Below, in pieces: positions 16,320-30,175 of a stretch of 64,000 bases of DNA. The stretch is taken from the NCBI GenBank assembly GCA_030602585.1, contig JAUVZJ010000006.1, positions 444 through 64,443 on the forward strand, given 5' to 3'. The translations under genes and the position numbers were made by a program. Each line of letters begins with the position of its first letter. The first letter of the stretch is position 1. The stretch is from Candidatus Methanophagales archaeon (GTDB lineage: Archaea > Halobacteriota > Syntropharchaeia > Alkanophagales > Methanospirareceae). Under the pieces are notes generated by a model. It was not told where the DNA came from, did not search any database, and was given only the letters and a program-made list of their open reading frames with translations.

Positions 16320-17846
16320 ATGCACTGGTCTTTAGCAATCGCAAAGGAGATAGTAGAGCGAAGGAAAGAGAAAAAGCATGTTCTTGCTACCGGTATTACA
16401 CCCTCTGGCGATATTCACGTGGGAAACCTGCGAGAGATAATAATAGGAGAGGCAGTGCATTCTGCTCTTGTGGACATGGGCGTGGATGCGAGACTCATCT
16501 ACGTCGCAGACACTTTCGACCCGCTCAGGAGAAGATACTCGTTCCTTCCTGGAGAATACGAAGCGCATGTAGGAAAGCCATTATCAGCGATACCAGACCC
16601 TGAGGGATGCCATTCGTCATACGCAGACCATTTTCTACAGCCGTTCCTTGATTCTTTAGACGTTTTGGGCATAAAAATAGAGATTTTCAAAGCCGATGAG
16701 ATGTATAAGTCGGGTATGTACGTGGACGTGATAAAGGAAGCGATTTCGAGAAGAGAAGATTTGTCGCGGATAATAGAGGAAGTCTCCGGTAGGCAACTGC
16801 CGGAAGAATGGATGGCTTTTAATCCGCTTTGTGACGCCTGTGGCAGAATCACAACCGCAATTGTAAAGCGATACGATACAGAAAAGGAGGAAGTGTATTA
16901 CGAGTGCGAATGTGGAAACAATGGTGCTGCTTCGTTTAAAGCTGGCGGTAAATTAGCATGGCGAGTGGACTGGGCAGCGAGATGGAAAATCCTTGGCGTT
17001 ACAATTGAGCCTTTTGGCAAAGACCATGCCGCTCCCGGCGGCTCTTTTGACACGGGAAAAAGAATCTCCTTGGAAATCTACGATTACGAAGCACCGTATC
17101 CTATCCCTTTTGAGCACATCCTCCTAAAGACGAAGGCGGTAGAAGGAACGAAGGCGAAAGTAACGGCTATGTCATCATCCAGGGGAACGAACGTTCCGGT
17201 GCACGCGATATTAGAAGCAGTGCCACCCGAAATTTTAAAGCACGTCATTTCGAGAGTGCGACCGGATAAGCACATAGAATTTAACCCTTCATTACCGCTA
17301 CTCAACCTGATAGATGAATACGAGCGTGAAATAGGCGAAATAGGACGCGGTGTTGCGGGAAAAATTCCTTTCCGGCATTTCATCACCCTTGTGCAAATTG
17401 CACGAGGTGATTTCTCTGAACTCCTGAACGTCATCGAGAGAAGTGGGTATGAGGTTCGTGAAGAAAACGAAGAAGAAATAAAGGGGATAGGTGAAAAAGC
17501 ACGGTATGTGGAAAATTGGCTGCGTGGATATGCACCTCCAGGCTTGAAGTTCGAATTGCAACCGGCGTTACCGGCAGAGGAACTAAAAAGCTTGTCCGAG
17601 GCACAAAAAAAGGCATTGAAGCTAATGGCACAGGAAATAAAGGAAGGTAAGACCCTGAGTGCTGACGATTGGCATGATAAAATATATGAAGTAGCCTCCG
17701 GTACAAACATAGAAGCGAAAGAGATTTTTAGGGCAATTTATGTGGTTCTGTTGAAAAAGTCTTCGGGACCTCGTGCAGGCTGGCTTCTCGCATCTCTGGA
17801 TACTGAATTCATAAGGGAAAGGTTTGAGGCGGCGGCACGGATATGA
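16320..17846 (+). CDS. lysS: Lysine--tRNA ligase, class I
   Basis: GITPSGDIHVGNLRE, GKLAWRVDWAARW, EPFGKDH, MSSSRG, GPRAG. Confidence 0.96.
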   Translation: MHWSLAIAKEIVERRKEKKHVLATGITPSGDIHVGNLREIIIGEAVHSALVDMGVDARLIYVADTFDPLRRRYSFLPGEYEAHVGKPLSAIPDPEGCHSSYADHFLQPFLDSLDVLGIKIEIFKADEMYKSGMYVDVIKEAISRREDLSRIIEEVSGRQLPEEWMAFNPLCDACGRITTAIVKRYDTEKEEVYYECECGNNGAASFKAGGKLAWRVDWAARWKILGVTIEPFGKDHAAPGGSFDTGKRISLEIYDYEAPYPIPFEHILLKTKAVEGTKAKVTAMSSSRGTNVPVHAILEAVPPEILKHVISRVRPDKHIEFNPSLPLLNLIDEYEREIGEIGRGVAGKIPFRHFITLVQIARGDFSELLNVIERSGYEVREENEEEIKGIGEKARYVENWLRGYAPPGLKFELQPALPAEELKSLSEAQKKALKLMAQEIKEGKTLSADDWHDKIYEVASGTNIEAKEIFRAIYVVLLKKSSGPRAGWLLASLDTEFIRERFEAAARI

Positions 17847-17848
17847 GA

Positions 17849-18031
17849 CTAAAATATCCTTCTTAATGCTGTAAACCAGTAGTGCACATAACCACTGATG
17901 AAATCACCTATTTCCATCGCTGAGAAATCTTCTGGAATGGACGCACTTCCGGAAAGAATGGGTAGCAGCAGGAACAGCGCAATCACCACCAGCACTATTA
18001 TCGCTACTATTTTCATTTTTTCCTTCCGCAC
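17849..18031 (-). CDS. Small membrane protein
   Basis: One hydrophobic N-terminal helix; co-oriented with the upstream membrane gene. Confidence 0.55.
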   Translation of the reverse strand: MRKEKMKIVAIIVLVVIALFLLLPILSGSASIPEDFSAMEIGDFISGYVHYWFTALRRIF

Positions 18032-18089
18032 CTCTTATTCTTATTCTTTATTCTCTTATTATAAAAATGTATCGCAAGCAACCCCGAAT

Positions 18090-18749
18090 TTAACGGTTGT
18101 TACTGCCATTGCTATTGCCCGTTTTAACAAATAAAAGAGGGAAGATTATGTCGCTCAGGCAGCAAGGAAACCAAACTGAAATGAATAATATTACGAATAC
18201 AAAAGGCAGAAATAAAGCCCAATTTGCAGTGCCACCAAAAGCCATGAGGTAAAATAACGACGCCCACGTGCTCAACAAAACATGCCCGGCATGTGGAAAC
18301 TCGGTTGTGGGTTTCCAATAAGCGATTAAAATACCGAGAACCGCAAGTGGATTCACAAGCCACCATTCCTCGATAAACCCCAGGTGCAATTCCATCTCCG
18401 CTCCTAAAAGAATACCACCGAAATAGGGAAATAATATATCGCTTATCGTTGCTATGCCAACAGCGCCGATGTAGCCAATTAAAAATACCGACACGCCTTT
18501 TCCCCGGTGTAATCTATACATGCCCGTGGTCACGATCGCACTCAAGACGACATGAATCGGATGGAGGGTACAGAAAATCCTTTCAGAAATATTTGGAGAG
18601 AGGTGGACTGTCAGAAGCATGATAACTATTCCTGTAACGGCGCCAAAAAAGGTGAAAGGGGCATGGCTCAGTAACTCTTTGGTAATTAGCTTCGTTCTTT
18701 CTCGCGCCCTCATCCTGAAAACATTTACGTATTCGTTAATATGCTTCAT
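18090..18749 (-). CDS. His-containing integral membrane protein, possible metal permease
   Basis: About 6 TM helices; HAPFT, LHPIHVVLSA, PHAGHVLLST, PCCLSD; divergent from a NikR-like regulator. Confidence 0.6.
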   Translation of the reverse strand: MKHINEYVNVFRMRARERTKLITKELLSHAPFTFFGAVTGIVIMLLTVHLSPNISERIFCTLHPIHVVLSAIVTTGMYRLHRGKGVSVFLIGYIGAVGIATISDILFPYFGGILLGAEMELHLGFIEEWWLVNPLAVLGILIAYWKPTTEFPHAGHVLLSTWASLFYLMAFGGTANWALFLPFVFVILFISVWFPCCLSDIIFPLLFVKTGNSNGSNNR

Positions 18750-18762
18750 CCCTATTTTTCTG

Positions 18763-18836
18763 ATAATATTAATAACATTTAAATAATTTATTATTAATAT
18801 TTATGGAAGTATTTATAAATATGTTATTAATATTAT
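18763..18836. promoter_or_regulatory. Inverted-repeat operator in the divergent promoter
   Basis: ATAATATTAATAACAT (18763-18778) and its perfect inverse (18821-18836); also AATATTAATAA-N15-TTATTAATATT (18765-18801). Confidence 0.55.
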
Positions 18837-18849
18837 TTTGGAGAAGGAG

Positions 18850-19233
18850 ATGACAATAATCAGCATCTCGCTAACGGGAGAGATATTGGAGGAGATAGAC
18901 AGGCTACAAAAGGAACTCGGCTTCTCTGGAAGGTCCGAAGTGATAAGAGCCGGAGCACGAATGCTCCTCGCGGATAACAAAGAGAAAGAAAAACTGGAAG
19001 GCAGGCTGAACTCTGTGCTTTTGCTCATTCATGCACAAAAGATGGAGGATACCGTAACAGAGATAAAACATGAATTCGAGGACATCATAAGCACACAGAT
19101 TCATAACCACTTGCGAGAGGATAAATGTATCGAAGTGTTCATTTTAGATGGTGACGCTGCTCGAATAAAGCAATTGGTTAGATTGTTCCAGACAAGCGGG
19201 AAAATGGATTACGTTAAGTTGATAATTGCGTAA
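18850..19233 (+). CDS. nikR: NikR-like CopG/ribbon-helix-helix metal-responsive regulator
   Basis: IISISL...GFSGRSEVIR; metal ligands HEF...HNH...C. Confidence 0.75.
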   Translation: MTIISISLTGEILEEIDRLQKELGFSGRSEVIRAGARMLLADNKEKEKLEGRLNSVLLLIHAQKMEDTVTEIKHEFEDIISTQIHNHLREDKCIEVFILDGDAARIKQLVRLFQTSGKMDYVKLIIA

Positions 19234-19271
19234 GCTATTTTCTTCTTGCTCCTTTCTGAAACTTTGCCGAG

Positions 19272-19309
19272 AAACCTTTCTTTAGAAAAGAAAGCTTTAC
19301 CAAAGAAAC
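19272..19309 (+). repeat. Dispersed palindromic repeat, AAACCTTTCTTTAGAAAAGAAAGCTTTACCAAAGAAAC family
   Basis: Related copies at 45941-46012 and ~36547-36584 (minus); degenerate copies at ~19738-19797, ~26016-26047 and ~45029-45082. Confidence 0.7.
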
Positions 19310-19421
19310 AAGGGAAATGCTGTGGAAAAAATATGGAATGTAAAAGGAGGGTATGCAATCTCTACTCTTCTTGCTTCTTTCTGAAAGTTTACCGGGATAA
19401 AATCTTTATTTTTCTATTTTA

Positions 19422-19869
19422 GTGGTTATCATTAGTTTTCGAGTTCGATTTCTTTTAGTTTTTTCGCCGAAATATCGAGGAAAGGTATTGGACGGAGAAG
19501 TAGCTGAAGTAGCGGAAGAAATTATTAGGGAAACCTGCAAAGAGATTGATATTGAAATCATAGACATTGGTGTGAATGTAGACCACGTTCACCTTTTTAT
19601 CAAATATCCTCCAAAGTATTCCGTTAGCTGGATAGCGAAACGGATAAAGGGGAGAAGCAGTAAGCTATTGAGGGATAGATTTCCACATCTTAAGGTGTGG
19701 TGCCCGGACCACCTGTGGGCGCCTTCTTGCTATCACTAAAACTTTTTTAAAAAAAAAGTTTATCAACAAACGTTTAGAAAAAGTTTGACCAAAAACGCTT
19801 GGCAGCTTCGCAGTAGGGCAAGGATGGGTAGTGGTGGAGAGGTATATATCGGGGCAGAAGGGGCATAGT
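19422..19869 (+). pseudogene. tnpA: IS200/IS605 Y1 transposase TnpA remnant, interrupted near its C-terminus
   Basis: VFSPKYR, DHVHLF (HUH), KRIKGRSS, LWAPSCYH*; after ~74 bp of repeat DNA, AVGQGWVVVERYISGQ resumes with the catalytic Tyr. Confidence 0.85.
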
Positions 19870-19945
19870 TACTTCTCATGAATGAGATATCGAAAAAAAA
19901 CCGAAAATCATTTTATATCCTATACTAAATATATAGTAGCAGTAA

Positions 19946-20017
19946 GCCACTGAGTTCCGTACTTGGGGGAGGGGGGTTTAAGTACAGGCCTTGTACTTAA
20001 GTACGGGGTATAGTGAC
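19946..20017. mobile_element. IS200/IS605-type element end with subterminal hairpin
   Basis: Hairpin TTAAGTACA-GGCCT-TGTACTTAA; minus strand begins GTCACTATACCCC; lies just beyond tnpA. Confidence 0.55.
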
Positions 20018-20075
20018 TATATCCTTTAAAAATAAAAAATTTATATCTCGAACAAAGTTCGAGTCGGCTCAAAAT

Positions 20076-20114
20076 GGATGTCTCGGAATTTATTCCGATG
20101 GTGGGAAGGTTGGG
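20076..20114 (+). repeat. GGATG-hairpin repeat, copy 1 (diverged)
   Basis: GGATGTCTCGGAATTTATTCCGATGGTGGGAAGGTTGGG. Confidence 0.65.
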
Positions 20115-20166
20115 TTATATTAAATTATATAAAGAAAGGACATATTGGTAAAAAAGAGGCGAATAA

Positions 20167-20538
20167 ATGAAAAGCAAAATCGCAATAGGAATTGTGGTAA
20201 TATTATTGGTCGTTATTGTTGCATTTTCTGGATGCATTGAAGAACAATCATTACCAGAAGAAACACCTACAATAGCTCCAGAATTACCAGAACAACCTAT
20301 CATGACACCCGCTCAACCTACGATACCAACTACACAAAATATAAATGGCAATTATAAGGTTCAAGATGTTTCTGGCGATACAATAAATATAAACGGCAAT
20401 TATAATGAGATTAGGATACTTAATGCAGATGTCTCATTGATCCGAGTTAACGGGAACTACAATACTGTTTACTATCCTAAAGAAGCTAGACCTACGATAA
20501 AAGAAAATGGTTCCGGAAATGAGATCAAAACTTATTGA
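20167..20538 (+). CDS. Lipoprotein with Pro/Thr linker and INGNYN repeats (DUF3060-like)
   Basis: Signal peptide ending FSGC; three (I/V)NGNY(N/K) units. Confidence 0.7.
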   Translation: MKSKIAIGIVVILLVVIVAFSGCIEEQSLPEETPTIAPELPEQPIMTPAQPTIPTTQNINGNYKVQDVSGDTININGNYNEIRILNADVSLIRVNGNYNTVYYPKEARPTIKENGSGNEIKTY

Positions 20539-20581
20539 CGCTTCGCTACTATGTCAAGGGTTCAAATCATGAGGCAATAAA

Positions 20582-21073
20582 ATGGATGGAGAACATCAGT
20601 TTTTTCATAAGAACTGTGGTGAAATTTTAAGAATGGCGCTCAATATAGAATCTGAATTAGATTTCTTTATATCTAATTATTTTTGTTCTCCTCAAAGTTA
20701 TAAAACCTTTCTCTTTAAGGATTTAATTTTGGTGGAACACCACATGGTATTTGGACGTAAAATCGAGATTTTTAAAGAGATCTGTAAAAAGGAAAATATC
20801 GGTAAAGAAAGGATTGATAAGATAGTTGACGCTGTTAAGTTTGTAAATAGGATCAGAAATAGAGTTGCACACGATGAGGCATTTGTATCTGATCAAAAAG
20901 AAGGAATAAAACTTCAAAAACGTAAAAGTGTGAAATACAAACAAGATGAAATTGAAATCACATACGATCTCGTTAAGAAGGTCGATGAAAAAAGGTTATC
21001 CGCTATACAAGAAATTGTCAAGCTCTATATGGAACTATCTGACCCTTCAAGAGAGAAGAACATAGAATGGTGA
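20582..21073 (+). CDS. HEPN-like (MtlR-type) protein
   Basis: IESELDFFISNYF...FGRKIEIF...RIRNRVAH (Rx4H). Confidence 0.6.
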   Translation: MDGEHQFFHKNCGEILRMALNIESELDFFISNYFCSPQSYKTFLFKDLILVEHHMVFGRKIEIFKEICKKENIGKERIDKIVDAVKFVNRIRNRVAHDEAFVSDQKEGIKLQKRKSVKYKQDEIEITYDLVKKVDEKRLSAIQEIVKLYMELSDPSREKNIEW

Positions 21074-21149
21074 TATTATGGTAAAAATTTGGCATATAAT
21101 GGTTCCATCCCCTCCCGCGGTTCATCCCATCGCCCGACCTCCATCCCGC

Positions 21150-21300
21150 GGATGCCCCGCAATTCAGAGGCTGTCTCACAATTCAAAATCTCAACAAAAA
21201 GAAACCCAAATAGTGCTTTATAGCGGAAAATAAGCATTCATTTTCGCAAAATATCTAATTATGGGACTTTCTCTTCATTGCGGGGTGGAGAGGTTGGGGC
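21150..21300 (+). repeat. GGATG-hairpin repeat, copy 2, split by a MITE
   Basis: Removing the MITE and one TSD restores GGATGCCCCGCAATTCATTGCGGGGTGGAGAGGTTGGGGC. Confidence 0.8.
21167..21273. mobile_element. 107-bp MITE with 4-bp TSD (TTCA)
   Basis: Imperfect TIRs GAGGCTGTCTCACAATT / AATTATGGGACTTTCTC (12/17); TTCA at 21163-21166 and 21274-21277. Confidence 0.75.
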
Positions 21301-21339
21301 TTAAGAGTTTTTTATAAGCGGGGTTATGAATTTTAAAAG

Positions 21340-21964
21340 ATGAAAAAAAACATCCAAATTGTTGAGATTCTTATAGCACTTATGCTTGCATCAACAGTGC
21401 TGATAATACCTATAGCCCAACATATGGCATATTATAATGAAAAGATCTTGGAATACGAACATTTAGTACCTGAATTTTAGCGATTATAGGCACCATGTAC
21501 AAATTTATCAATCTCCAACGCTTTCATAAGTAATAATCGCTTTTTAGTAGCTCTTTATTTTGGTGCGTATGAATGACATGGTGCCTAATAGGCACTATGT
21601 CATATAAATAGTTTGCGTAATTATCGCCTTATTGGTGATAATAACGCAGGTATGCAGAGATTCAAGGCATGGTGCCTATAAAGCCAAAAATTCAGGTTAG
21701 TAGAAGAAGCAAAATATCCAGCAGCTAAACAGGATTTGATAAGCATTAGGGGTACTTTTATTTGGAAAATTAATATGAATGGGATTATCTTTTTTGTTCA
21801 CAACATCGAGTGCAGTGATAAGTATAAGTGGACTTTTTATATTTCTATTTAGGGGTATTGAGTCTGAGAAAATTTTAAAATATGTTGTTTGTCTAAGTAT
21901 CGTTTTTTTCTTGTGCGCAATAGTACTAATGGCAAGAGTAATATCTTTTTATCCTATACCTTAA
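21340..21964 (+). pseudogene. Small membrane-protein gene disrupted by a MITE and further decay
   Basis: MKKNIQIVEILIALML...YEHLV | EEAKYPAAKQDL reads through after MITE removal; the hydrophobic tail (ORF 21779..21964) is in another frame. Confidence 0.55.
21469..21696. mobile_element. 228-bp MITE with ~30-bp TIRs and 6-bp TSD (TTAGTA)
   Basis: CCTGAATTTTAGCGATTATAGGCACCATG / CATGGTGCCTATAAAGCCAAAAATTCAGG; TTAGTA at 21463-21468 and 21697-21702. Confidence 0.88.
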
Positions 21965-21993
21965 AGATATTGAAATTTGATGAGGATGATATA

Positions 21994-22401
21994 ATGACAA
22001 CAGATTGGCATAAAAGGATTGTAGGTGCAAAGAGAGAGGAACTTAGACGAAAAAGTCTTAGGATATATGATAGTGAGAAGATGATCGGGTTTAAATGGCC
22101 GGCGGACAGCGAATCGCAAATAAAGAGGGTAGACATACTTGCAGAGAATGAAAACGAGATTGTCATAGTTGAAGTGGAAGACGCAAAAGCGAACGGTTTG
22201 GAAATAGGTGTGCCATTTGTTGAACTTGGAGGGATTCTCCTTTTGACATACGTAGCGTCAAGGCATACCGATAAGATAGTTGAGCTATGTTTGATCTTTC
22301 CAAAGAATATCGAAAAGCACCGATTTGAGAAAATAAGTAAGATTATTGATGAAGCAAAAAGTGTATTGACGTCATTACAAATCAATATTGAACAAAGGTA
22401 G
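21994..22401 (+). CDS. Hypothetical protein, PD-(D/E)xK-like fold suspected
   Basis: H..IV, RVDILAE...IVIVEVED; ATG 21994. Confidence 0.5.
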   Translation: MTTDWHKRIVGAKREELRRKSLRIYDSEKMIGFKWPADSESQIKRVDILAENENEIVIVEVEDAKANGLEIGVPFVELGGILLLTYVASRHTDKIVELCLIFPKNIEKHRFEKISKIIDEAKSVLTSLQINIEQR

Positions 22402-22422
22402 TTGTGTGAATGAATAAAGCAG

Positions 22423-22462
22423 GGATGCACCCGAATTCATTCGGGTGTGGCGAGGATGGGGC
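22423..22462 (+). repeat. GGATG-hairpin repeat, copy 3
   Basis: GGATGCACCCGAATTCATTCGGGTGTGGCGAGGATGGGGC, enclosed by the IR ATAAAGCAG/CTGCTTTAT. Confidence 0.85.
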
Positions 22463-22535
22463 TGCTTTATAATCTCATGCTCGCTGAGTCTATTCATTTA
22501 ATTTATTATATTCTCGGCGAGTGTGAGTCGAAAAT

Positions 22536-22559
22536 GAAGCCCTCGAATTTATTCGGGGG
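22536..22559 (+). repeat. IS605-end-like hairpin related to the GGATG repeat
   Basis: GAAGCCCTCGAATTTATTCGGGGG, with the same AAT-TT-ATT core. Confidence 0.55.
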
Positions 22560-22643
22560 TTTTTACTCGGATCTGTTGCTGGTGCCTTTATCGGGCATAT
22601 GGTGAGCGAGATTTTGGAGTAAATGTATCTTTTTGGCGACGGC

Positions 22644-22717
22644 ATCTAACAGCGTGTTTCCGGTTCGCTACGCTCACCAAAATGCTTCGCACTTCGCAAA
22701 CACTGAAAACGTTATAG
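22644..22717 (+). other. Integron attC-like site
   Basis: R'' ATCTAAC (RYYYAAC), stem GTGTTT../..AAACAC, internal CGCTACGCTC and TGCTTCGCA hairpins, R' GTTATAG; ~20 bp after the stop of an ORF remnant (GSVAGAFIGHMVSEILE*). Confidence 0.6.
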
Positions 22718-22764
22718 AAAATTACTTAAGGTTAAACATACAAAATAAATAGCGAGGTGAAAAT

Positions 22765-22959
22765 ATGGAGGTAAAGGAAGTAATCTTGAAGGAAATCGAG
22801 CGGGTTCCTGAACAATATCTTGCGGAGATACTGGATTTTATACACTTTTTAGCGGCAAAAGCGTTGGAAGAAAGTATGGAAACAGCAATCGCAAGCGAAA
22901 CGTCCCTTAAAAAAGATTGGCTAAGACCGGAGGAGGACGAAGCTTGGCGAGATTTGTGA
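22765..22959 (+). CDS. DUF2281-type antitoxin
   Basis: EILDFIHFL...ASETSLKKDWLRPEEDEAWRDL; overlaps a toxin fragment. Confidence 0.8.
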   Translation: MEVKEVILKEIERVPEQYLAEILDFIHFLAAKALEESMETAIASETSLKKDWLRPEEDEAWRDL

Positions 22960-23060
22960 AGGGAGATGTGGTGGTTGTTCCATTTCCATTTTCGGATTTA
23001 ACCCGCGCCAAAAGGCGTCCTGCTCTGGTTATTACCGAATTAGAAGGGGATGACTTTTAA
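22944..23060 (+). pseudogene. Truncated PemK/MazF toxin
   Basis: ARFVKGDVVVVPFPFSDLTRAKRRPALVITELEGDDF*, the N-terminal 38 aa only. Confidence 0.85.
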
Positions 23061-23106
23061 ATAAAGGTGGTTATCATATAGATAGGGAAAAGGAGGTGAG
23101 AAAAAA

Positions 23107-23970
23107 ATGAGTGAAAAGTTGTTTGGGGAACGTCCATTGAGACTCGGTCCAATAATCGGAGTGATAGTAGCGATTGTGATACTGTTAATCGTGGTATCTT
23201 CGATGGTTGTCGTAATCGGTGCTGGTGAAACTGGCGTCAAGTTCAATCCTTTCGCTGGTGGTGTTCAGTCAGACGAGTTCACGGAGGGATTTCATTTCAA
23301 GGCGCCATGGGTTCATGTAGATAGATACAACGTCAAGACGCAGGACTACACAATGTCGAGAGTGGTAGAAGAGGGAGCAGTAAAGAGGGATGATAGAATT
23401 AGAACAGTGACAAAAGAAGGGCTCTATGTTGATCTGGATATAACCGTTCTTTACAGGATTGACCCAACCAAAGCTGATGAAATAAGGAGAACCATTGGTT
23501 TAGATGGTCAATATCAGGGAATTGTCGTTAGACCGACGATAAGAAACGCAGTGCGAGAAGTAATCAGCAGCTACAATGCTATGGATATCTACGGTGAAAA
23601 GAGACCGATAGTGGAGCAGAATATGCATGAAATATTAGTTGACCAGTTACAAGTAAGAAATATCGTCGTGGAGAGAATGCTACTGAGAGACGTTGAACTG
23701 CCTGCGGAATTAAGCGCGGCAATAGAAGCGAAGAAAACAGCGGAACAAGAAGCCCTGAGGATGGAGTATGTGCTGGATAAAGAGGAGCTGGAAAAGGAGA
23801 GAAAAATCATCGAAGCTGGAGGAATTTCAGAGGCGAACAAGATAATTGCAGGGAGCCTTAGCACAGAATATCTTACATGGTACTGGATAGACAACCTGGA
23901 TACACACGAGAGTGTTATCTACGTCCCGGTTGGTGAAGCAGGGATGCCGATGTTTAGAGAGATTCCCTGA
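23107..23970 (+). CDS. SPFH/prohibitin family membrane protein
   Basis: N-terminal TM helix, GETGVKF, EGFHFKAPW, LLRDVELP...AIEAKKTAEQEA; AGGAGGTGA RBS. Confidence 0.9.
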   Translation: MSEKLFGERPLRLGPIIGVIVAIVILLIVVSSMVVVIGAGETGVKFNPFAGGVQSDEFTEGFHFKAPWVHVDRYNVKTQDYTMSRVVEEGAVKRDDRIRTVTKEGLYVDLDITVLYRIDPTKADEIRRTIGLDGQYQGIVVRPTIRNAVREVISSYNAMDIYGEKRPIVEQNMHEILVDQLQVRNIVVERMLLRDVELPAELSAAIEAKKTAEQEALRMEYVLDKEELEKERKIIEAGGISEANKIIAGSLSTEYLTWYWIDNLDTHESVIYVPVGEAGMPMFREIP

Positions 23971-24099
23971 TTTTTTCAAAAGTTGGGGGGTTTAATTTTC
24001 CCCTCCATTTTTAGTAGCTCTGGAAATCTGAATATAGAGCACTGTTGGTGAAACGGAGGCATCGTTGGTTGAATGAAAAAATCTAAGAGGAGGTGAAAA

Positions 24100-24345
24100 A
24101 TGATAGCTATTCTAATAAGGCTCTTGATACCGCTAATCATTGGTATACTTGCTCTACTCGGAATCTTGAAAGTAAGTGAATGGTGGCGGTATGGAATACC
24201 ATATTGTGGTATATGTGGTAGATTGGTCTTGGGATTAAGGAGTAGTTGTCTAATAGAGGGTCAAAGAATTGAATGCCATGCTGATTGTTGCCCTCTGTAT
24301 CGTGAGAACCTTGTGTGTAAACGGAAAGTGATAATCGAGGACTGA
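24100..24345 (+). CDS. Small membrane-anchored Cys-rich protein
   Basis: TM helix then CGIC...C...C...CC; GAGGAGGTGA RBS. Confidence 0.55.
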   Translation: MIAILIRLLIPLIIGILALLGILKVSEWWRYGIPYCGICGRLVLGLRSSCLIEGQRIECHADCCPLYRENLVCKRKVIIED

Positions 24346-24358
24346 AAAATTAAAGGAG

Positions 24359-24619
24359 GTGATACGAATGTCAAAAATGGTTTTAGACAGACTATTGAGG
24401 GATATGAAGATAACGATAGATGAAAAGACTAAAGAAGATCTTTGGGAAGGTGTTAGAAGAGATTTCTCTATTGCTGGGTCAGTTGAGAATGAGAGATGTG
24501 AACATCTTGAGTTAATGACTAAAGATCGCAGAGGAAGGAGAATACTAGAGGGCTACATAAGAAAGTGGATGGAAAAGAGAAAAAAAGAAAAGAGAAAATT
24601 AATAGAAGTCCCTGCGTAG
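24359..24619 (+). CDS. Hypothetical protein
   Basis: ORF with AGGAGGTGA RBS (start could be ATG 24368). Confidence 0.5.
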   Translation: MIRMSKMVLDRLLRDMKITIDEKTKEDLWEGVRRDFSIAGSVENERCEHLELMTKDRRGRRILEGYIRKWMEKRKKEKRKLIEVPA

Positions 24620-24817
24620 ATAGTTCCAAAAAAGGGATTGATTACACGTTATGTGACCAAGATTGATCCTGGTACATGTGCGTCTATCATAAAAGACTTT
24701 CTTGGATATTACGATGAATTTTTCGAGAGAAGAAAAGAGTGGGTGGAAGATTTTGGAAAGAAGTTTTAGCTTTAATTAGAAAAAATGAAAAATAGGTGGC
24801 GATGCCCACAACAAAGC

Positions 24818-24857
24818 GGATGCACCCGATTTTAATCGGGTGTGGCGTGGTTGGGGC
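24818..24857 (+). repeat. GGATG-hairpin repeat, copy 4
   Basis: GGATGCACCCGATTTTAATCGGGTGTGGCGTGGTTGGGGC; 35/40 identical to copy 3, with a compensatory stem change. Confidence 0.85.
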
Positions 24858-24865
24858 TTCCCTTC

Positions 24866-25948
24866 TTATTTTTTAACCTTTGCATCTATCCCTATAATAT
24901 ACGCATAAGGAGCATAAGGCTTCACTTTCCTCGCTTCCAGTATCTCCAACTGAAAGTGAAATTCTTCTTGTTCGCATGCCTCTTCTATTTTCGCAGTTAA
25001 TCTCTCCTTTGCCTTATTTATTGCTATTTCAAGCGATTTCCTCTTCTCATCGCTCAAATCAGAATAAGAAGATACTACATCGTAGAAATGAATTATCCCG
25101 CCTTGTGGGTTAAGCATGCACAACGCTTCTCGAAGGAATGAATAAGCACTTTTCGGGAGGTTCATAATTATCCGGTCTGCCTTGTTTCGGAACTTCACGT
25201 AGATTTCTCTCACGTCGCCCTCTATCGCTTCTATGTTTCTCACACCGTTCAGCCTTATGTTCTCCTGAAGATACCGTATCGCATCGGGATTGATGTCAAT
25301 AGCAGCAACGTGACTTTGACGTGCTCGTTTAGCAACTTGTATGGAGAAAGAGCCGACACCTGCGAACATGTCTATTATTTCCTCTTTGCTATCCCGAACC
25401 TGCACTGCTACGCGATTTCGTTCACCCGCCAGACGAGGATTAAAATAAACCGTTTCCAGGTTGAGCTTGTATTTACAGCCGTTCTCCTTGTGCACCGTCT
25501 CTGTCCTGTTCTCACCTGCGATTATCTCCATCTTCCTTTTTCTGAATACACCTTCCACCGGTGAAATCCGTTTTGCTACCACTTTAATGTTTTTATGCAG
25601 GCTCATTAACGCATGCGCTACGAGCTGGTCATTCGTCCCGTTTATCACGTCAGTCAGCACCGCAATGTCACCGATTATTTCATAAGAGGGTTTCAGTCCA
25701 ACGATGTCTTCTATGCTCCTTCTCGGTTCCAATACCGCAAATTCTCTTGTTAAAAGTTCCGCAACACCTATTTCTCTTTTCTCCGCTTCTTTTAGCGCCC
25801 GTATAAGCGGTAAATAAATAAAATCGGCGTCGGAATTTATCTTTGCGTCCGTTCTCAGCAGTTCGAGTTCTTTCAACGCTCTACGGATTTCTTCTCCCCT
25901 TCTCTTCTCTACTTTCACACAGGGCAAATTCTCTGTTTCTGCTTTCAT
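24866..25948 (-). CDS. trm5: tRNA (guanine-37-N1)-methyltransferase, Trm5 family
   Basis: YEIIGDIA, ETVHKENG, VYFNPRLAGER, DMFAGVGSF, DINPDA, IIMNLP. Confidence 0.88.
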   Translation of the reverse strand: MKAETENLPCVKVEKRRGEEIRRALKELELLRTDAKINSDADFIYLPLIRALKEAEKREIGVAELLTREFAVLEPRRSIEDIVGLKPSYEIIGDIAVLTDVINGTNDQLVAHALMSLHKNIKVVAKRISPVEGVFRKRKMEIIAGENRTETVHKENGCKYKLNLETVYFNPRLAGERNRVAVQVRDSKEEIIDMFAGVGSFSIQVAKRARQSHVAAIDINPDAIRYLQENIRLNGVRNIEAIEGDVREIYVKFRNKADRIIMNLPKSAYSFLREALCMLNPQGGIIHFYDVVSSYSDLSDEKRKSLEIAINKAKERLTAKIEEACEQEEFHFQLEILEARKVKPYAPYAYIIGIDAKVKK

Positions 25949-26079
25949 GGCTTTCTTTATTTGATCTACTTTTTCATCTACCTGTAATGTAATTTGGCAG
26001 GGAGGGTTGATAAGTCAACCCTTTTAGAAAACGGTTTAATCCAAAACTGAGTTCTTTTTTGGTGGGAGTGTCTGGCCCC

Positions 26080-26973
26080 TTATAAAGAAAGTTTGAAAGG
26101 CAGCCCTTTTCTACAACCATATTCACGTATGCAGAACGAAGCAACTAAATTACCCGTTTTAGCACTTTCGTATATTCCCTTTTCGTGTAGCAACCCATAC
26201 AAGAATCCTGCTGCGAATGCATCGCCCGCGCCTGTCGTATCTACCACATCCGTTGGATATGCATCTATTAAATGCGATTCTCCGGTGCTATCTGCTACAT
26301 AACTGCCTTTCTCGCCAAGCGTCACGCAGACAATCTTAGCACCAATGTTCAGAAGAACCTCAGCACCTTTTTCGTAATTATCATCCTTCATTAATGATTT
26401 CAACTCTTTAAGGCTGAGAAAAACCACTTCGCTTCGCTCTATTATCACAGTTAAATCCTCAAGCTCGTATGTGAAGCAGAGCATACCGGGGCTGAAACTT
26501 AGCTTCGATTTTATTTCGCGCGCCAATTCGCACTGCATTTCCAGTTGCTCCTTGTTTACAAACGAACTCGTATGTAGAAACCTCGCATTCTCTATAAATT
26601 CCATATCTATATTCTCTATATGCAGCTTAGCATTCACACCTGAATGGATATAAAGCGCCCGTTCTCCTTCGGCATCAATGAATCCTATTGCGGCGCCTGT
26701 GTAACCCTCTTCTTTTATTATCCTCGTCTCTACTCCTTCTTTACTGAACTCTTCCAGAATTAGTTCGCCTTCTTCATCTTTTCCTACAATACCCACGAAC
26801 CCTGCATCAACGCCTAATCTCGATAATGCAACGGTTGTATTCGCCGCAGAGCCACCCGGCACCTTCATTACGTCTATAATACCTACCTCTTCCCCTCCGC
26901 TCGCTATTCGTTCCACGACATAAAGAACGTCGTAATTCAAGGCGCCTAAGCCGATTACTTCTTTTACACTCAT
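26080..26973 (-). CDS. PfkB family carbohydrate/nucleoside kinase
   Basis: PGGSAANT, VTLGEKGS, VDTTGAGDAFAAGF. Confidence 0.92.
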   Translation of the reverse strand: MSVKEVIGLGALNYDVLYVVERIASGGEEVGIIDVMKVPGGSAANTTVALSRLGVDAGFVGIVGKDEEGELILEEFSKEGVETRIIKEEGYTGAAIGFIDAEGERALYIHSGVNAKLHIENIDMEFIENARFLHTSSFVNKEQLEMQCELAREIKSKLSFSPGMLCFTYELEDLTVIIERSEVVFLSLKELKSLMKDDNYEKGAEVLLNIGAKIVCVTLGEKGSYVADSTGESHLIDAYPTDVVDTTGAGDAFAAGFLYGLLHEKGIYESAKTGNLVASFCIREYGCRKGLPFKLSL

Positions 26974-26978
26974 TTTAA

Positions 26979-27557
26979 TTACGCTTTTAGTTCCCCTTTC
27001 TCATCTATATAACTTTCAACTCTTATTTTCATCGCCGAAAACTCCTCCAAAACATCCAATCTCTTGCATCGCTCCGCCAAATATTCCATGTCCATGTTGT
27101 CAAACTGTCTGACATAGATTCCTTCGGCATCCTTTATGTCTTGCTCGCTTCCAAATAGCAGTTTATTCGCAATCGTATCCTCCGGCGATGTTACGTAAAA
27201 CACAAAATCCGCGAAACTTACTTTCCTTCTCCTTTTTAACGTTAGCCGGTCATTTTCGCCGTAGATTCCTTTTATATCCAGTCTTATCATTGAAGTTTTA
27301 TCTTCTATCATGGCATGAGACTTCTCCTCAAACGCCGTTTTTACATCATCTACATCTGCAAAAAAGTCATTCTCTTTAAGGAGTTCTACAAATCTCTTTA
27401 CTTTGGGCATATCCATCTCGATTATTATGTCTATATCCATTGTCGTGCGGGGAACACCGTAAAACAGAACCGCTAAACCTCCAACTACTACATACGCTAC
27501 CTTTTCTTCATTTAAAAACGTGCACACCAATTCTAATATCTCATTCATGTTTCGCAT
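26979..27557 (-). CDS. Nucleotidyltransferase (DUF6036-like)
   Basis: VVGGLAVLFYGVPRTTMDID, SPEDTIANKL, QDIKDA. Confidence 0.8.
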   Translation of the reverse strand: MRNMNEILELVCTFLNEEKVAYVVVGGLAVLFYGVPRTTMDIDIIIEMDMPKVKRFVELLKENDFFADVDDVKTAFEEKSHAMIEDKTSMIRLDIKGIYGENDRLTLKRRRKVSFADFVFYVTSPEDTIANKLLFGSEQDIKDAEGIYVRQFDNMDMEYLAERCKRLDVLEEFSAMKIRVESYIDEKGELKA

Positions 27558-27705
27558 TTTTCGATATCCTCATTGCAAATTCTATAAGGTTTAAACCCTG
27601 TTCAAAGGTTTCGATTTCGGAGAATTTTCTTGCTCTTAACGCTTCTCTTATCCATCCTTTCTCCCTTTCCTCTTTTATTCTCGCTCTTAGTTCTTCTTTT
27701 TTCAT
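27541..27705 (-). CDS. 54-aa protein coupled to the nucleotidyltransferase (possible TA partner)
   Basis: MKKEELRARIKEEREKGWIREALRARKFSEIETFEQGLNLIEFAMRISKNAKHE, read manually; overlaps both neighbours. Confidence 0.55.
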   Translation of the reverse strand: MKKEELRARIKEEREKGWIREALRARKFSEIETFEQGLNLIEFAMRISKNAKHE

Positions 27706-28940
27706 TACTCTTGAGCCAGAGCCTCAAATATCTTTTTACCAAGATTAGTGACCGAAAACCATTCGATTCCCCAACCATGTCTCACGAAATATTCGTCCCT
27801 GTCCTTCTCATACCCAAAATCAAGAAGTCCAAACAACTTAAGTGCTGGCATGATTCTTTCCGCGAAAACGCTTAAAATGAATTCTGTCATCGCCCAATAA
27901 CCTTCAAGCTCGTCTTCTGTATTCTGCAGTTCCATTCCGGCTTCCTTTAACTGTTCTTTAAACAAATATGTCTCTTCGGGTTCGCACTCTGAGAAAAGGA
28001 AAGCCATATCCCACCTTCTTGCTTGCACATACTCCGGTCTTCCTCCACTATACGGCGGTAAAAACTTCTCCCACCTCGTTCCATTCCACATCGCATCGAA
28101 CAATAGCATAAATTGCTCCTTTAGCGAAAGCGTCTTGAAAATATCTATTCTTGGAGTCATCACTAATGTGTTTTTTGCGCTCACAACGAACAAGTCTAAA
28201 GTTATGCTTACGTTGTAAAACAGGTGGATGGTTCTCGAATCGGGTTGATTTGCAGTGCTTTTCAGTTCTTCTGGGCTGCTCATCAATTCGTTCAACGCAA
28301 AAACGTGTTTTCTACCGATGAAGCTACTCGCAGCAGTCAGTTTCATGCCGTTATTTGCTGATAGGTAGTTCAAGAACGTCTGGAAATCTCTTACAACTGA
28401 TGTATTGCTTGACTTCAAATCTTCTTCCGAAAACGACTCGTTAATCTCTTCGCTCACTTCATAATGTTGTTCGTAGTTCACTTCTATCTCTTCTTCTTGA
28501 CCCATAAACCATCTTTCAAAATCTTCTTCCCATGTCTCGCTTTCCGGATCGAGTTCAAAGTAAGTTTCAAATCTGCGGATGTATTTTTGAGGGTCTTCGC
28601 ATGCCGAAAGTATGTCATCCAGTTGTTCTTCTTCCACGTCGCCACGTTCATGAAGGAACTTGTAGAATTTCTTGAATGCAACGAGTATGGGACGGACATC
28701 GCTCTTGCCACCGCCCACCTTTCGGATATACCAATTCCCGAGATAGTCTTCGATATCAGTGCCTGCAACTTCCAAAAGGCTTTTTCCCTCGTAACCGGTG
28801 AGGTAGTGGAAGGCGAAGAAGCTGATTTGTTCAGCGTGCGCTGAAGCTGTTTCTTTGCTTATTCCTTTTTCTGTCGTTAGATGGTCATAAAACTGTTTGG
28901 TTAATTTTTCCGTTTTCTTTTCTAAACTCCTGTGGGTCAT
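27705..28940 (-). CDS. Protein with an integrase SAM-like N-terminal domain and no catalytic recombinase domain
   Basis: FYDHLTTEKGISKETASAH...IEDYLGNWYIRK...AFKKFYKFL; no R-HxxR-Y set in the C-terminal part. Confidence 0.55.
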   Translation of the reverse strand: MTHRSLEKKTEKLTKQFYDHLTTEKGISKETASAHAEQISFFAFHYLTGYEGKSLLEVAGTDIEDYLGNWYIRKVGGGKSDVRPILVAFKKFYKFLHERGDVEEEQLDDILSACEDPQKYIRRFETYFELDPESETWEEDFERWFMGQEEEIEVNYEQHYEVSEEINESFSEEDLKSSNTSVVRDFQTFLNYLSANNGMKLTAASSFIGRKHVFALNELMSSPEELKSTANQPDSRTIHLFYNVSITLDLFVVSAKNTLVMTPRIDIFKTLSLKEQFMLLFDAMWNGTRWEKFLPPYSGGRPEYVQARRWDMAFLFSECEPEETYLFKEQLKEAGMELQNTEDELEGYWAMTEFILSVFAERIMPALKLFGLLDFGYEKDRDEYFVRHGWGIEWFSVTNLGKKIFEALAQE

Positions 28941-28942
28941 TT

Positions 28943-30175
28943 TTACGCCTCGGCAAGTTTTTGCTTCAGTTCTTCAAAAACACTTTCTTCGCCAAATTTT
29001 CCTTCTATTGGTTCAATATTATCTTTGATAGGCTCCAAATCGTCTCTTATTTTCTTTGCATTCGGATTTATCAAAAAAATCCTTATTTCCGGATTTCTTT
29101 TCACGGCATCGAAGAATACATTTCTGATATGTTCGTCTCCGAAGGAGTAGCCTATGATAATGCAAATCTTCTCTGAACGCAAACTGGTTTTTAAGCGAGT
29201 GAACAACTCAAAAAAAGGGTCTTTGTAAACTTCTTTCTCTCGCATTGGGTATATCATTGCGTTTTCGAGTTTACTTGGTTCAAGAGGGGTTTTAATTATC
29301 TCTTCTTTGTAGATATATTGGTCAATAGAACCATGCAGCTTTAAAAGCTTGATTTTGTATTTATTTTTGTCATATCTCTCGGGATCCCAATCTCCTATCC
29401 TTCTTTGCGGATCAGAGTATGTAAATCCATCGTAAAAATCATCAAATTTGTCTTTTGTTTCAATATATTTTTCAATAACCGTGTCATAGTTCGTTGTGAA
29501 GATGTTGAAGGAAGAGGAGCAATTTTCTAAAATCTTAAAGAGTCGGTCATATTTATCTTTAATGTCCGCCTTGATAGAATCATCATGTTTAATCTTCTCA
29601 TTTATGTTACATTCCTTCTTGATAAATTCGATTATTTTCGATTTTAGGTTTTTTGAAAGGTTTTGATTAAGTAAGATTCTCATTCGGTTTAATTCTTTTT
29701 CTAAATTTTCGATTATTACGGGTGAATTATTAATTTGGTCTGCTATTTCATTATAGCGATTAGGTGTGAGATTCAGCATTTCTATTAATTGTGACCGAGG
29801 GGTTTGTTCTTCCATTATCTCTTTTAGCTCCTTGCTTGCATCAGCTAATTTACGCATTCCTATACAACCTCTTTCTATGAAGGCATGATACCAATCTAAA
29901 TAATTAGATTTTAGATATCTTATTGTAGGGTTGTCTGATGGTTTAGCCAGATCATTCAAGACTGTGAGAAGGTCTTCTAAATTATTAAATTCCATAGCAT
30001 CAATGGCATAATATAGCACTTCATCATCCATTAGCTTCCGGTTACCCTCTCTCTTCACCAAGTTATAATCTATAATTTTTTCGAATACACTACTCAATCC
30101 ATCTTCTCCACTCATCGTTGGTATCCCAAACGGCTTAGAAGCCCCTGCACCTAAGAAAAGCATCATCTTAACCAC
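28943..30175 (-). CDS. SIR2-like (SIR2_2) protein, putative NADase defence effector
   Basis: LFLGAGAS..FGIPTM, IFTTNYD, LLKLHGS, IIGYSFGDEHI. Confidence 0.88.
   Translation of the reverse strand: MVKMMLFLGAGASKPFGIPTMSGEDGLSSVFEKIIDYNLVKREGNRKLMDDEVLYYAIDAMEFNNLEDLLTVLNDLAKPSDNPTIRYLKSNYLDWYHAFIERGCIGMRKLADASKELKEIMEEQTPRSQLIEMLNLTPNRYNEIADQINNSPVIIENLEKELNRMRILLNQNLSKNLKSKIIEFIKKECNINEKIKHDDSIKADIKDKYDRLFKILENCSSSFNIFTTNYDTVIEKYIETKDKFDDFYDGFTYSDPQRRIGDWDPERYDKNKYKIKLLKLHGSIDQYIYKEEIIKTPLEPSKLENAMIYPMREKEVYKDPFFELFTRLKTSLRSEKICIIIGYSFGDEHIRNVFFDAVKRNPEIRIFLINPNAKKIRDDLEPIKDNIEPIEGKFGEESVFEELKQKLAEA

Follow-up and report, generated by a model that had tools for sequence, protein, structure and literature searches.

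What assembles a row of small accessory genes that is punctuated by co-oriented hairpins and preceded by the remains of a transposase gene? The question is raised by the interval between nikR and trm5 in a Candidatus Methanophagales archaeon (GenBank assembly GCA_030602585.1, contig JAUVZJ010000006.1), within a stretch of 64,000 nucleotides of that contig, hereafter the window. Among systems that store and rearrange individual genes as cassettes, to our knowledge only the integron is well understood, and its operation requires a tyrosine recombinase. Judged by its sequence, the hairpin of this locus, here named HP40, is clearly derived from the right end (RE) of an insertion sequence (IS), being a variant of the RE hairpin of the IS200/IS605 family, whose Y1 HUH transposase (TnpA) has left a gene beside the array. 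In the labels used below, C stands for contigs of the window's genome (2.05 Mb in 89 contigs, 42% G+C), G for relative genomes, L for fetched loci and X for public sequencing runs.

HP40 is a unit of 42 bases, comprising GGATGC, a 9-bp covarying stem with a 2–4-nt AT-rich loop, and the tail TGGnnnGGwTGGGGC(TT). The strict pattern has two exact matches in the window and none in 100 shuffles, and a repeat search of the window grouped three full copies with three tails. The original prediction, made from the letters of the window alone, had placed four + strand copies at 20076, 21150, 22423 and 24818 and had seen no further copy; all four were located, and a covariance model built from five copies finds only those noted. 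A related hairpin claimed at 22536 is real, and represents a third tail type of the same site. These sites are:

20076–20116 (+): HP40 copy 1, 54.4 bits, with a damaged tail reading GGTTGGG-TT in place of GGTTGGGGC
21150–21302 (+): HP40 copy 2, with a 109-nt element (21166–21274) resembling a miniature inverted-repeat transposable element (MITE) inside the hairpin loop, flanked by TC/TC
22423–22464 (+): HP40 copy 3, 64.8 bits, with the GGGGC end at 22462
22535–22566 (+): RE-like site with a type C tail (see below), TGAAG-CCCTCGAAT-TT-ATTCGGGGG-TTTTTAC
24818–24859 (+): HP40 copy 4, 65.7 bits, with the GGGGC end at 24857 and the trm5 stop codon 8 nt further on; right boundary of the element

The arms of copy 2, CCCCGCAAT and ATTGCGGGG, are complementary and lie at 21155–21163 and 21277–21285, and in a variant metagenome contig the tail of copy 1 is restored to GGTTGGG+G+C. 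That the stems differ yet stay paired is borne out by an alignment of 61 copies from 27 sources, in which 91.6% of cells are paired, against 73.2% after shuffling and 36–48% with the partner slid; compensatory changes occur in six of the nine stem pairs (96 cells). Across genera, sequence conservation is seen in GGATGC on the 5′ side and in the tail on the 3′ side, while the stem varies.

A covariance-model search of the window's genome gave 13 good matches (E ≤ 8.6e-6) among 23 listed. Most copies lie in three co-oriented arrays, namely three compact copies and one split copy in the window (C69, all +), three copies on the 5-kb contig C45 (all −) and four on C57 (all −), with single copies on C28, C54 and C31. 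Each array copy stands just 3′ of one to three small co-oriented open reading frames (ORFs), which include membrane proteins, a GyrI-like/Cass2 protein (C45 array) and a c-subunit-like protein. The original prediction had set a check on scatter beforehand, and it came through this check, the copies being found mainly in arrays and after small accessory ORFs. By a crude gene call, the gene upstream of HP40 is co-oriented with it in 46 of 60 copies, whereas downstream genes run in the same direction in 36 cases and in the opposite one in 23, hence HP40 belongs to the 3′ end of the preceding gene. An explanation by a tRNA or att site was rejected, as no tRNA was found in or beside the arrays.

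Among 41 relatives searched, 26 carry HP40. This includes 19 of 24 genomes of the same family (the window's genome left out) and all genomes of two other families of the class (4/4 and 1/1), with none in nine genomes of five further families (f4, f5, f7–f9). Copies sharing a contig in these relatives are co-oriented. In viral contigs (IMG/VR) the HP40 pattern gave 15 matches, none of which forms the hairpin (at most 5/9 pairs), and no HP40 was found there.

The neighbour that recurs is the transposase. ORF clustering of 25 array loci, picked by HP40 only, gave IS200-type TnpA as the most widely common family, present at seven of the 25 loci and always upstream of the array on the same strand. 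The reverse search used the intact 183-aa TnpA of this genome (L045:6873-7424) as query and yielded 80 loci from species-representative genomes, spanning the Methanophagales/ANME-1, Methanoperedens, ANME-2 and ANME-3 lineages (ANME, anaerobic methanotrophic archaea), Argoarchaeum and Syntrophoarchaeum. A search of 445,249 nt on the upstream side of tnpA and 248,061 nt on the downstream side detected 37 HP40 matches, 35 of them downstream on the tnpA strand, one downstream on the opposite strand and one upstream; among 43 loci whose downstream sequence reaches 1.5 kb or more, 23 possess a match. A close TnpA (at least 56% identity) is encoded by 20 of 26 HP40-positive genomes and by none of 15 HP40-negative genomes, three of which have only distant IS200 homologues (29–43% identity).

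The intact TnpA covers positions 2–121 of the 121 in the Pfam Y1_Tnp profile (E 6.6e-33) and matches the solved IS200/IS605 transposases 2ec2 (E 9.6e-26), 2a6m (E 4.7e-23) and also 2xm3, with whose sequences its HUH and Y-I-x-x-Q (catalytic Tyr) motifs align. The window's genome has four tnpA loci, with an intact copy such as that on C83, and many tnpA copies are fragments.

HP40 can be compared directly with the RE of this IS. Intact IS copies end in the hairpin ...CCGTAC-TTAA-GTACGGGG followed by TATGTGAC, conserved in C83, C3, L052, L059 and L061, and diverge immediately after GTGAC. The hairpin foot CCCCG...CGGGG-T is common to HP40 and the IS RE, and RE-like sites have three tail ends: type A (...GTGAC), type B (HP40, ...GGGGC) and type C (...TTTAC). 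Loci of Methanoperedens, Methanosarcinales and Methanophagales have type A sites (GGATGC-hairpin-T..GTGAC) downstream of tnpA. Of 15 type A sites in all, two represent a single place beside trm5 in G001 that was fetched twice, and a further two belong to HP40-first loci, one of these being on the array strand; in the 11 tnpA-oriented loci, every site is on the tnpA strand. Hybrids also occur, with a tail reading TGGCCTGGATGTGAC at C44:29374 and sites in C60 and G003 that join an IS RE arm to an HP40 tail. At the RE, predicted subterminal hairpins take the place of terminal inverted repeats.

At the left end (LE) of the IS, no convincing hairpin was found among the LEs compared, and 12 LE flanks mostly end in ...YAA; no empty/filled pair was seen for the IS itself. 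An LE-like motif lies within 300 nt downstream in 0 of 98 HP40 copies, with no positional conservation downstream. The cassettes are thus not miniature complete IS elements, a candidate explanation which we ruled out on this ground.

Several observations concern variation among the sites. The MITE-like element of copy 2 belongs to a group of ~110 nt (AGAGGCTGTCTCAC...GGGAC...CTCT, with internal pairing), of which further copies lie at C43:1998, C66:22910, C26:36327, C60:8577, C48:55855, C68:9145 and L018:15247-15360. It occupies the apical loops of RE-like hairpins with TC/TC or TT/TT flanks, with hairpin arms on either side in at least five places, and the loops of the transposase's sites seem to be its target. 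A different hairpin, GGAC-GGAGGTC-GAAA-GACCTCC, whose tail nevertheless has the same end, ...GGTCGGGGCT or ...GGTTGGGGCT, was found at L019:2723-2767 and L019:4309-4352 (G011:C28), and five loci possess an HP40 subfamily with the alternative tail GGTGG(A/T)CTGTGC(C/A)TCG; both may be further variants of the site.

Judging from its layout, the 5.6-kb nikR-trm5 interval is one element, consisting of an LE, a dead tnpA and an RE, followed by repeated units of cargo plus an RE-like site. Apart from the sites listed above, its parts and flanks are:

18838–19233 (+): nikR, left chromosomal flank (Pfam NikR_C, RHH_1), with its stop codon 4–5 nt before the IS LE
19238–19421 (+): rearranged IS200-type LE, with a 37-nt mini-repeat insertion (19272–19308) and a partial LE duplication (19357–19397)
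19422–19870 (+): dead tnpA (Y1 HUH), of which the fragment 19422–19739 matches Pfam Y1_Tnp (E 5.8e-27)
19880–20017 (+): outward TATA-like promoter module and type A RE hairpins, ending ...GTACGGGGTATAGTGAC at 20017
20167–21073 (+): cassette 1, with a DUF3060 lipoprotein (20167–20538) and a 163-aa HEPN-like protein (20582–21073)
21340–22401 (+): cassette 2, with an ORF fragment, a 231-bp MITE (21467–21697), a 61-aa membrane ORF and a 135-aa ORF without an assigned family
22765–24769 (+): cassette 3, with a DUF2281 antitoxin-like gene, a MazF/PemK-like fragment, an SPFH/Band 7 protein and three small ORFs
24866–25948 (−): trm5, right chromosomal flank (Pfam TRM5-TYW2_MTfase, Trm5_N), with orthologues in 25/25 relatives

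The Y1 transposase predicted to adjoin the array is therefore present as a fragment. Relative to L045:6873-7424, the gene shows an N-terminal truncation and a small repeat insertion at ~19740–19810, upstream of the catalytic-Tyr motif, and a contig joint from 19735 to 19811 in X2 represents tnpA without the insert. The LE motif TTGCTCCTTTCTGAAACTTTGCC is common to 12 other tnpA loci, and the promoter and RE module is repeated in C54, L052 and L061; from its sequence, the TATA-like module after tnpA would point into the array. The 37-nt mini-repeat in the LE, AAACCTTTCTTTAGAAAAGAAAGCTTTACCAAAGAAA, occurs at ~50 genomic places, and in several genomes tnpA is split by related forms of 40–75 nt, ending ...AAAAACGCTTCGCAG, each time behind the codon that closes ...APSCYH and in some cases in frame.

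The predicted gene labels stood in part. Those of the lipoprotein (DUF3060) and the SPFH protein were confirmed; 'HEPN' found no Pfam support, the lead for 20582–21073 being an ESM-Atlas match only (0.97 to a 'RiboL-PSP-HEPN' cluster), and 'nuclease-like' for 21994–22401 found none either. For the predicted toxin-antitoxin (TA) pair, the DUF2281 antitoxin-like gene holds, while of the toxin there is a fragment of 47 aa (22917–23060) whose match to PemK is weak (E 0.04).

The orthologous interval in relatives is empty or differently filled, as a comparison suggested with the original prediction brought out. It measures 170 bp and is empty in G005, 440 bp with only a promoter and RE-like remnant in G003, ~1 kb in G015 and 6.3 kb with a 1696-aa ORF in G004. 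The nikR/LE junction, ...GCGTAAGCTA(A)/TTTC..., is found in G004 and L054 as well as in the window, the LE lying 4–5 nt from the nikR stop codon in all three. On the other side, where the last HP40 copy abuts trm5 as claimed, the last RE-like site lies 3–8 nt from the trm5 stop codon on the same flank, the window having type B there, G001 type A and G004 a decayed type C-like form. The whole interval hence behaves as one element, with cargo differing by lineage. In G001, G003 and G005, the covariance model detected no type B HP40 in the nikR-trm5 region, except a tail-only partial match in G003 (E 0.029). The 1696-aa ORF (L017:9690-14780) fills the same element in another genus, and L044 and L033 carry a NosD/beta-helix PGF-CTERM surface protein as cargo, so the cargo can include large envelope proteins.

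Homologues of cassette 1 were found in eight of 66 genomes of the family, in five of 14 genera, but not in the same-genus genome. In G003 (C69 of that genome) the cassette lies directly behind a solo promoter and RE ending GTGAC, whereas in the window it follows HP40, and the homology between the two begins within ~15 nt of the site end in both. A HicAB-like cassette together with its HP40 shows ~88% nucleotide identity between two genera; in the two genomes concerned, Trm5 is 72–77% identical to the Trm5 of the window. A two-gene cassette duplicated within G011 is too diverged for homology boundaries to be placed.

Natural variants of the locus were sought in public data. The stretch 18800–26000 was found in marine-sediment runs, four of which were compared as Logan contigs (not raw reads) at 90% likeness; uncovered parts of the stretch in X3 and X9 were not counted as evidence, runs with small word shares (X4–X8 and X10–X12) were left aside and give no indication of habitat, and contig depth is not equal to the share of cells. 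In X1, a run that may be a source of this DNA, contig depth is even across the stretch (121–197), and in X2 it is 9.9–14.6 for contigs over 19989–22567 against 250–254 for flank contigs. Joints that bridge blocks were found in contigs from three samples. One joint, from 20114 plus a G to 22566 (X3 depth 32.8, side 39; X1 depth 3.3), takes out 2.45 kb and gives back the canonical tail GGTTGGGGC; the segment, absent from these variant strains, has the type C site as its right end. Further joints run from 22461 to 22677 (X2 depth 254, side 39), from 20016/20018 to 22462 (X2 depth 203.9, side 28, two ambiguous letters), from 22534 to 22420 (X2 depth 203.9), from 22564 to 20016 (X9 depth 3.5, three ambiguous letters) and from 20018 to 21277, those at 20016 and 20018 falling at the type A RE end.

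By exact indexing, the tails end at 20017 (GTGAC), 22462 (GGGGC of copy 3) and 22566 (TTTAC). With ambiguous letters allowed for, all breakpoints of the first five joints but one lie 0–2 nt from an RE-like tail end, the exception being the joint from 22534 to 22420, whose near end falls 3 nt short of HP40 copy 3 on its 5′ side. Strain breakpoints therefore fall at the repeats, as predicted. In the internal variants, the LE, tnpA and the chromosomal flanks on both sides are retained, and all differences lie between RE-like ends. Breakpoints lie at non-homologous positions, 14–17 nt after one hairpin and 7 nt after another (14 nt and 7 nt for the ends of the 2.45-kb segment), which argues against homologous recombination.

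We propose that HP40 would serve as an RE-type recognition and cleavage site of a Y1 (HUH) transposase in ANME-type archaea, made up of a guide-like GGATGC 5′ of the hairpin foot, the covarying hairpin and the conserved 3′ tail. DNA exchange would take place at the tail end, after ...GGGGC or, in the sister tails, after ...GTGAC or ...TTTAC. A TnpA dimer supplied in trans by an intact copy (such as that on C83) would bind two RE-like hairpins on the same single strand, cut 3′ of each tail and swap the strands. Two sites in one array would then give a deletion and a single-stranded circle of cargo plus one site, a circle meeting a resident site would insert just 3′ of it, and repeated rounds would build and shuffle arrays. 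The IS RE would take the role of attI, HP40 that of attC, and the outward TATA-like promoter after tnpA that of Pc. This model reproduces the structure at 20114/22566, that is, resident site, cargo, incoming site and old flank in that order.

Direct observations cover the repeat and its covariation, the linkage of HP40 to tnpA and its homology to the RE, and where natural breakpoints fall, and HP40 is tied to the Y1 TnpA both physically and phylogenetically, in agreement with the HUH link first suggested from the sequence; cleavage and strand transfer by TnpA, the single-stranded state of the DNA and the circles are what we infer. On balance we consider it fairly probable that TnpA, acting in trans on single-stranded DNA (ssDNA), recombines RE-like sites and thus inserts, excises and shuffles cassettes.

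The geometry of the site points the same way. In IS608, four guide bases 5′ of the RE hairpin foot pair with the cleavage site 10 nt 3′ of it (PMC3201880). Like IS608 and ISDra2, members of the IS200/IS605 family, the present system has a Y1 HUH transposase with HUH and catalytic-Tyr motifs, subterminal hairpins at the RE and an LE abutting a putative short ...YAA target, and HP40 resembles the IS608 RE in having a guide-like sequence on the 5′ side of the foot and exchange points on its 3′ side. The distance from foot to exchange point is 15–16 nt in HP40, against 10 nt in IS608. Unlike IS200/IS605 elements, the RE site is multiplied in arrays with unrelated cargo and has three interchangeable tail types, the cargo blocks have no LE and there is no tnpB.

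A number of points weigh against recombination by TnpA at these sites. The tnpA adjoining the window's array is dead, and some arrays (C57) have no tnpA within view. Six HP40-positive genomes have no close TnpA (incomplete metagenome-assembled genomes with one or two matches each), three of the 80 TnpA loci coincide with HP40-first loci (L091=L029, L051=L033, L095=L042), and relatives are not independent samples, yet presence and absence alternate within the genera g3, g5 and g6. The mismatch counts (TG 12 and GT 3, against AC 4 and CA 4) do not clearly indicate which strand folds. A type B HP40 lies near the cassette 1 homologue in only one of the eight loci in other genomes. Regarding the metagenomes, the left junction of the 2.45-kb segment is 2 nt off, at GGTTGGG-TT and not at GGTTGGGGC, and two joints that go back, from 24859 to 22423 (X1 depth 134) and from 22567 to 20076, are unlike the simple circle junctions of the model and are unexplained. 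Joint sides are also short (28–45 nt), some are marked 'between: not known', and joints at 90% likeness can stem from repeats or other organisms.

In a more conventional explanation, HP40 copies are only alternative or decayed REs of ordinary passenger-carrying IS200 transposons, the arrays arise by nested or one-ended transposition and decay, and the strains differ by ordinary deletion or homologous recombination. That HP40 is RE-derived and lies downstream of tnpA, that many tnpA copies are fragmentary, that the whole interval behaves as a single insertion between nikR and trm5, and that type B HP40 is so rarely near cassette 1 homologues are all expected under it. We nonetheless judge it unlikely, as the internal variants retain the LE, tnpA and flanks with changes only between RE-like ends, the non-homologous breakpoints speak against homologous recombination, the same cassette stands behind two different RE-like sites, and an LE follows none of the 98 HP40 copies.

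A role at the RNA level is less probable still. Here HP40 would mainly be a 3′-UTR (untranslated region) hairpin that terminates, stabilises or processes the transcripts of accessory genes, with the transposon link incidental or secondary. HP40 shares the orientation of the gene before it and follows the stop codon at a distance between a few and some tens of nt, covariation is equally expected of an RNA hairpin, and repetitive extragenic palindromes (REPs) are known to double as RNA elements. This explanation is at odds with the presence of only ~13 copies per genome, with the strict tie to the presence and orientation of tnpA, and with flanks conserved in sequence while the stem varies and DNA breakpoints at the tail end. 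A search of Rfam over 17000–27000 (E up to 10) gave seven matches, all well below the gathering cut-offs, of which only mir-1468 (22457–22544) touches an HP40, overlapping the final bases of the copy-3 tail. RNA folding of the long copy 2 was unremarkable (z = −1.24). We regard the RNA explanation as quite improbable.

REPs offer a further comparison, in which a domesticated Y1 enzyme spreads a selfish palindrome and the neighbouring genes are bystanders rather than cargo. A hairpin that has a conserved oligonucleotide on its 5′ side, stands in intergenic DNA behind genes and is coupled to a Y1 enzyme is also a feature of REPs, bacterial interspersed mosaic elements (BIMEs) and REP-associated tyrosine transposases (RAYTs), and corresponds to REP with TnpA-REP (PMC3333891, PMC8266576). 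In contrast to these, HP40 is low-copy (~13), co-oriented and array-forming without inverted BIME pairs, it bounds mobile cargo, the blocks between sites are accessory and vary among strains, and TnpA is a multi-copy IS gene (four loci) with its own LE and RE, often decayed. An origin of this kind is very improbable in our view.

That the arrays are a true integron or another tyrosine-recombinase array, with HP40 as an unusual attC, is scarcely credible in spite of the cassette layout, the GyrI-like/Cass2 'integron-associated' protein of the C45 array and an ORF with an integrase N-terminal SAM-like domain 3 kb away (27705–28940), as this ORF matches Phage_int_SAM_1 only and no catalytic integrase domain, lies beyond trm5 on the opposite strand and is not beside the other arrays, where TnpA is the recurrent neighbour, as HP40, a short hairpin of near-perfect pairing whose conserved flanks are single-stranded, differs from attC (an imperfect palindrome of the layout R''-L''...L'-R' with a GTTRRRY core), and as no IntI was found in a Pfam scan of the ORFs flanking the three arrays and no attC cores in the HP40 consensus. 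We therefore rejected the integron explanation.

Recombination of RE-like sites by TnpA can still be set beside integrons in its outcome. The label 'integron-like' given at the outset fits the layout, and does not extend to an integron integrase or attC features. Shared with integrons are a recombinase gene, a primary site, repeated units of mostly promoterless small ORFs plus a folded site, an outward promoter, sites kept by structure more than by sequence, accessory cargo (TA, membrane and Cass2/GyrI-like proteins) and strain-variable arrays. The differences lie in an HUH Y1 transposase in place of a tyrosine recombinase, in the site architecture and in the archaeal host. Other systems have accessory genes that are bounded by short sites, or captured next to the end of an HUH element, in a similar way. 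The pdif modules of Acinetobacter plasmids carry accessory genes between short repeated sites and use XerC/D, while ISCR/IS91, with Y2 rolling-circle HUH enzymes, capture genes beside the element end and are not known to leave site-punctuated arrays.

We hold it possible, without quite expecting it, that ANME-type archaea carry an HUH-Y1/ssDNA functional analogue of the integron, with RE docking, HP40 cassette sites, ssDNA circles and an outward promoter. If so, it would be a second, independently evolved cassette-capture platform, and cassette capture would have evolved at least twice; a very small enzyme (~180 aa) with 42-nt sites would become available for single-strand DNA insertion, and the exchange of small defence, toxin-antitoxin and envelope genes among uncultured methane-oxidising archaea would be explained. 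The system falls within the known IS200/IS605 kind, and could constitute a new kind of cassette platform if the exchange mechanism holds. Archaeal integrons have been reported (10.1101/2022.02.06.479319) and are described there as integrons, the element of the IntI/attC kind. In the open full-text literature on archaeal integrons, ANME-1/Methanophagales IS and IS200/IS605 passengers, no title or opening of an abstract describes cargo arrays punctuated by IS200-type RE hairpins. The succession of GGATGC, hairpin and tail also provides a simple signature for locating accessory gene pools in ANME genomes.

Two further features of the window stand apart from the sites. The 231-bp MITE in cassette 2 has 30-nt terminal inverted repeats and copies of 99% identity on C18 and C42, and contig depth is raised over it in X1 and X2; it looks recently active. 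Beyond trm5 and pfkB, at 26979–30175 (−), lie genes for a DUF6036/AbiEii-like nucleotidyltransferase, a 411-aa protein with an integrase-SAM-like domain and a 410-aa SIR2_2 protein, and these three genes may represent a defence island.

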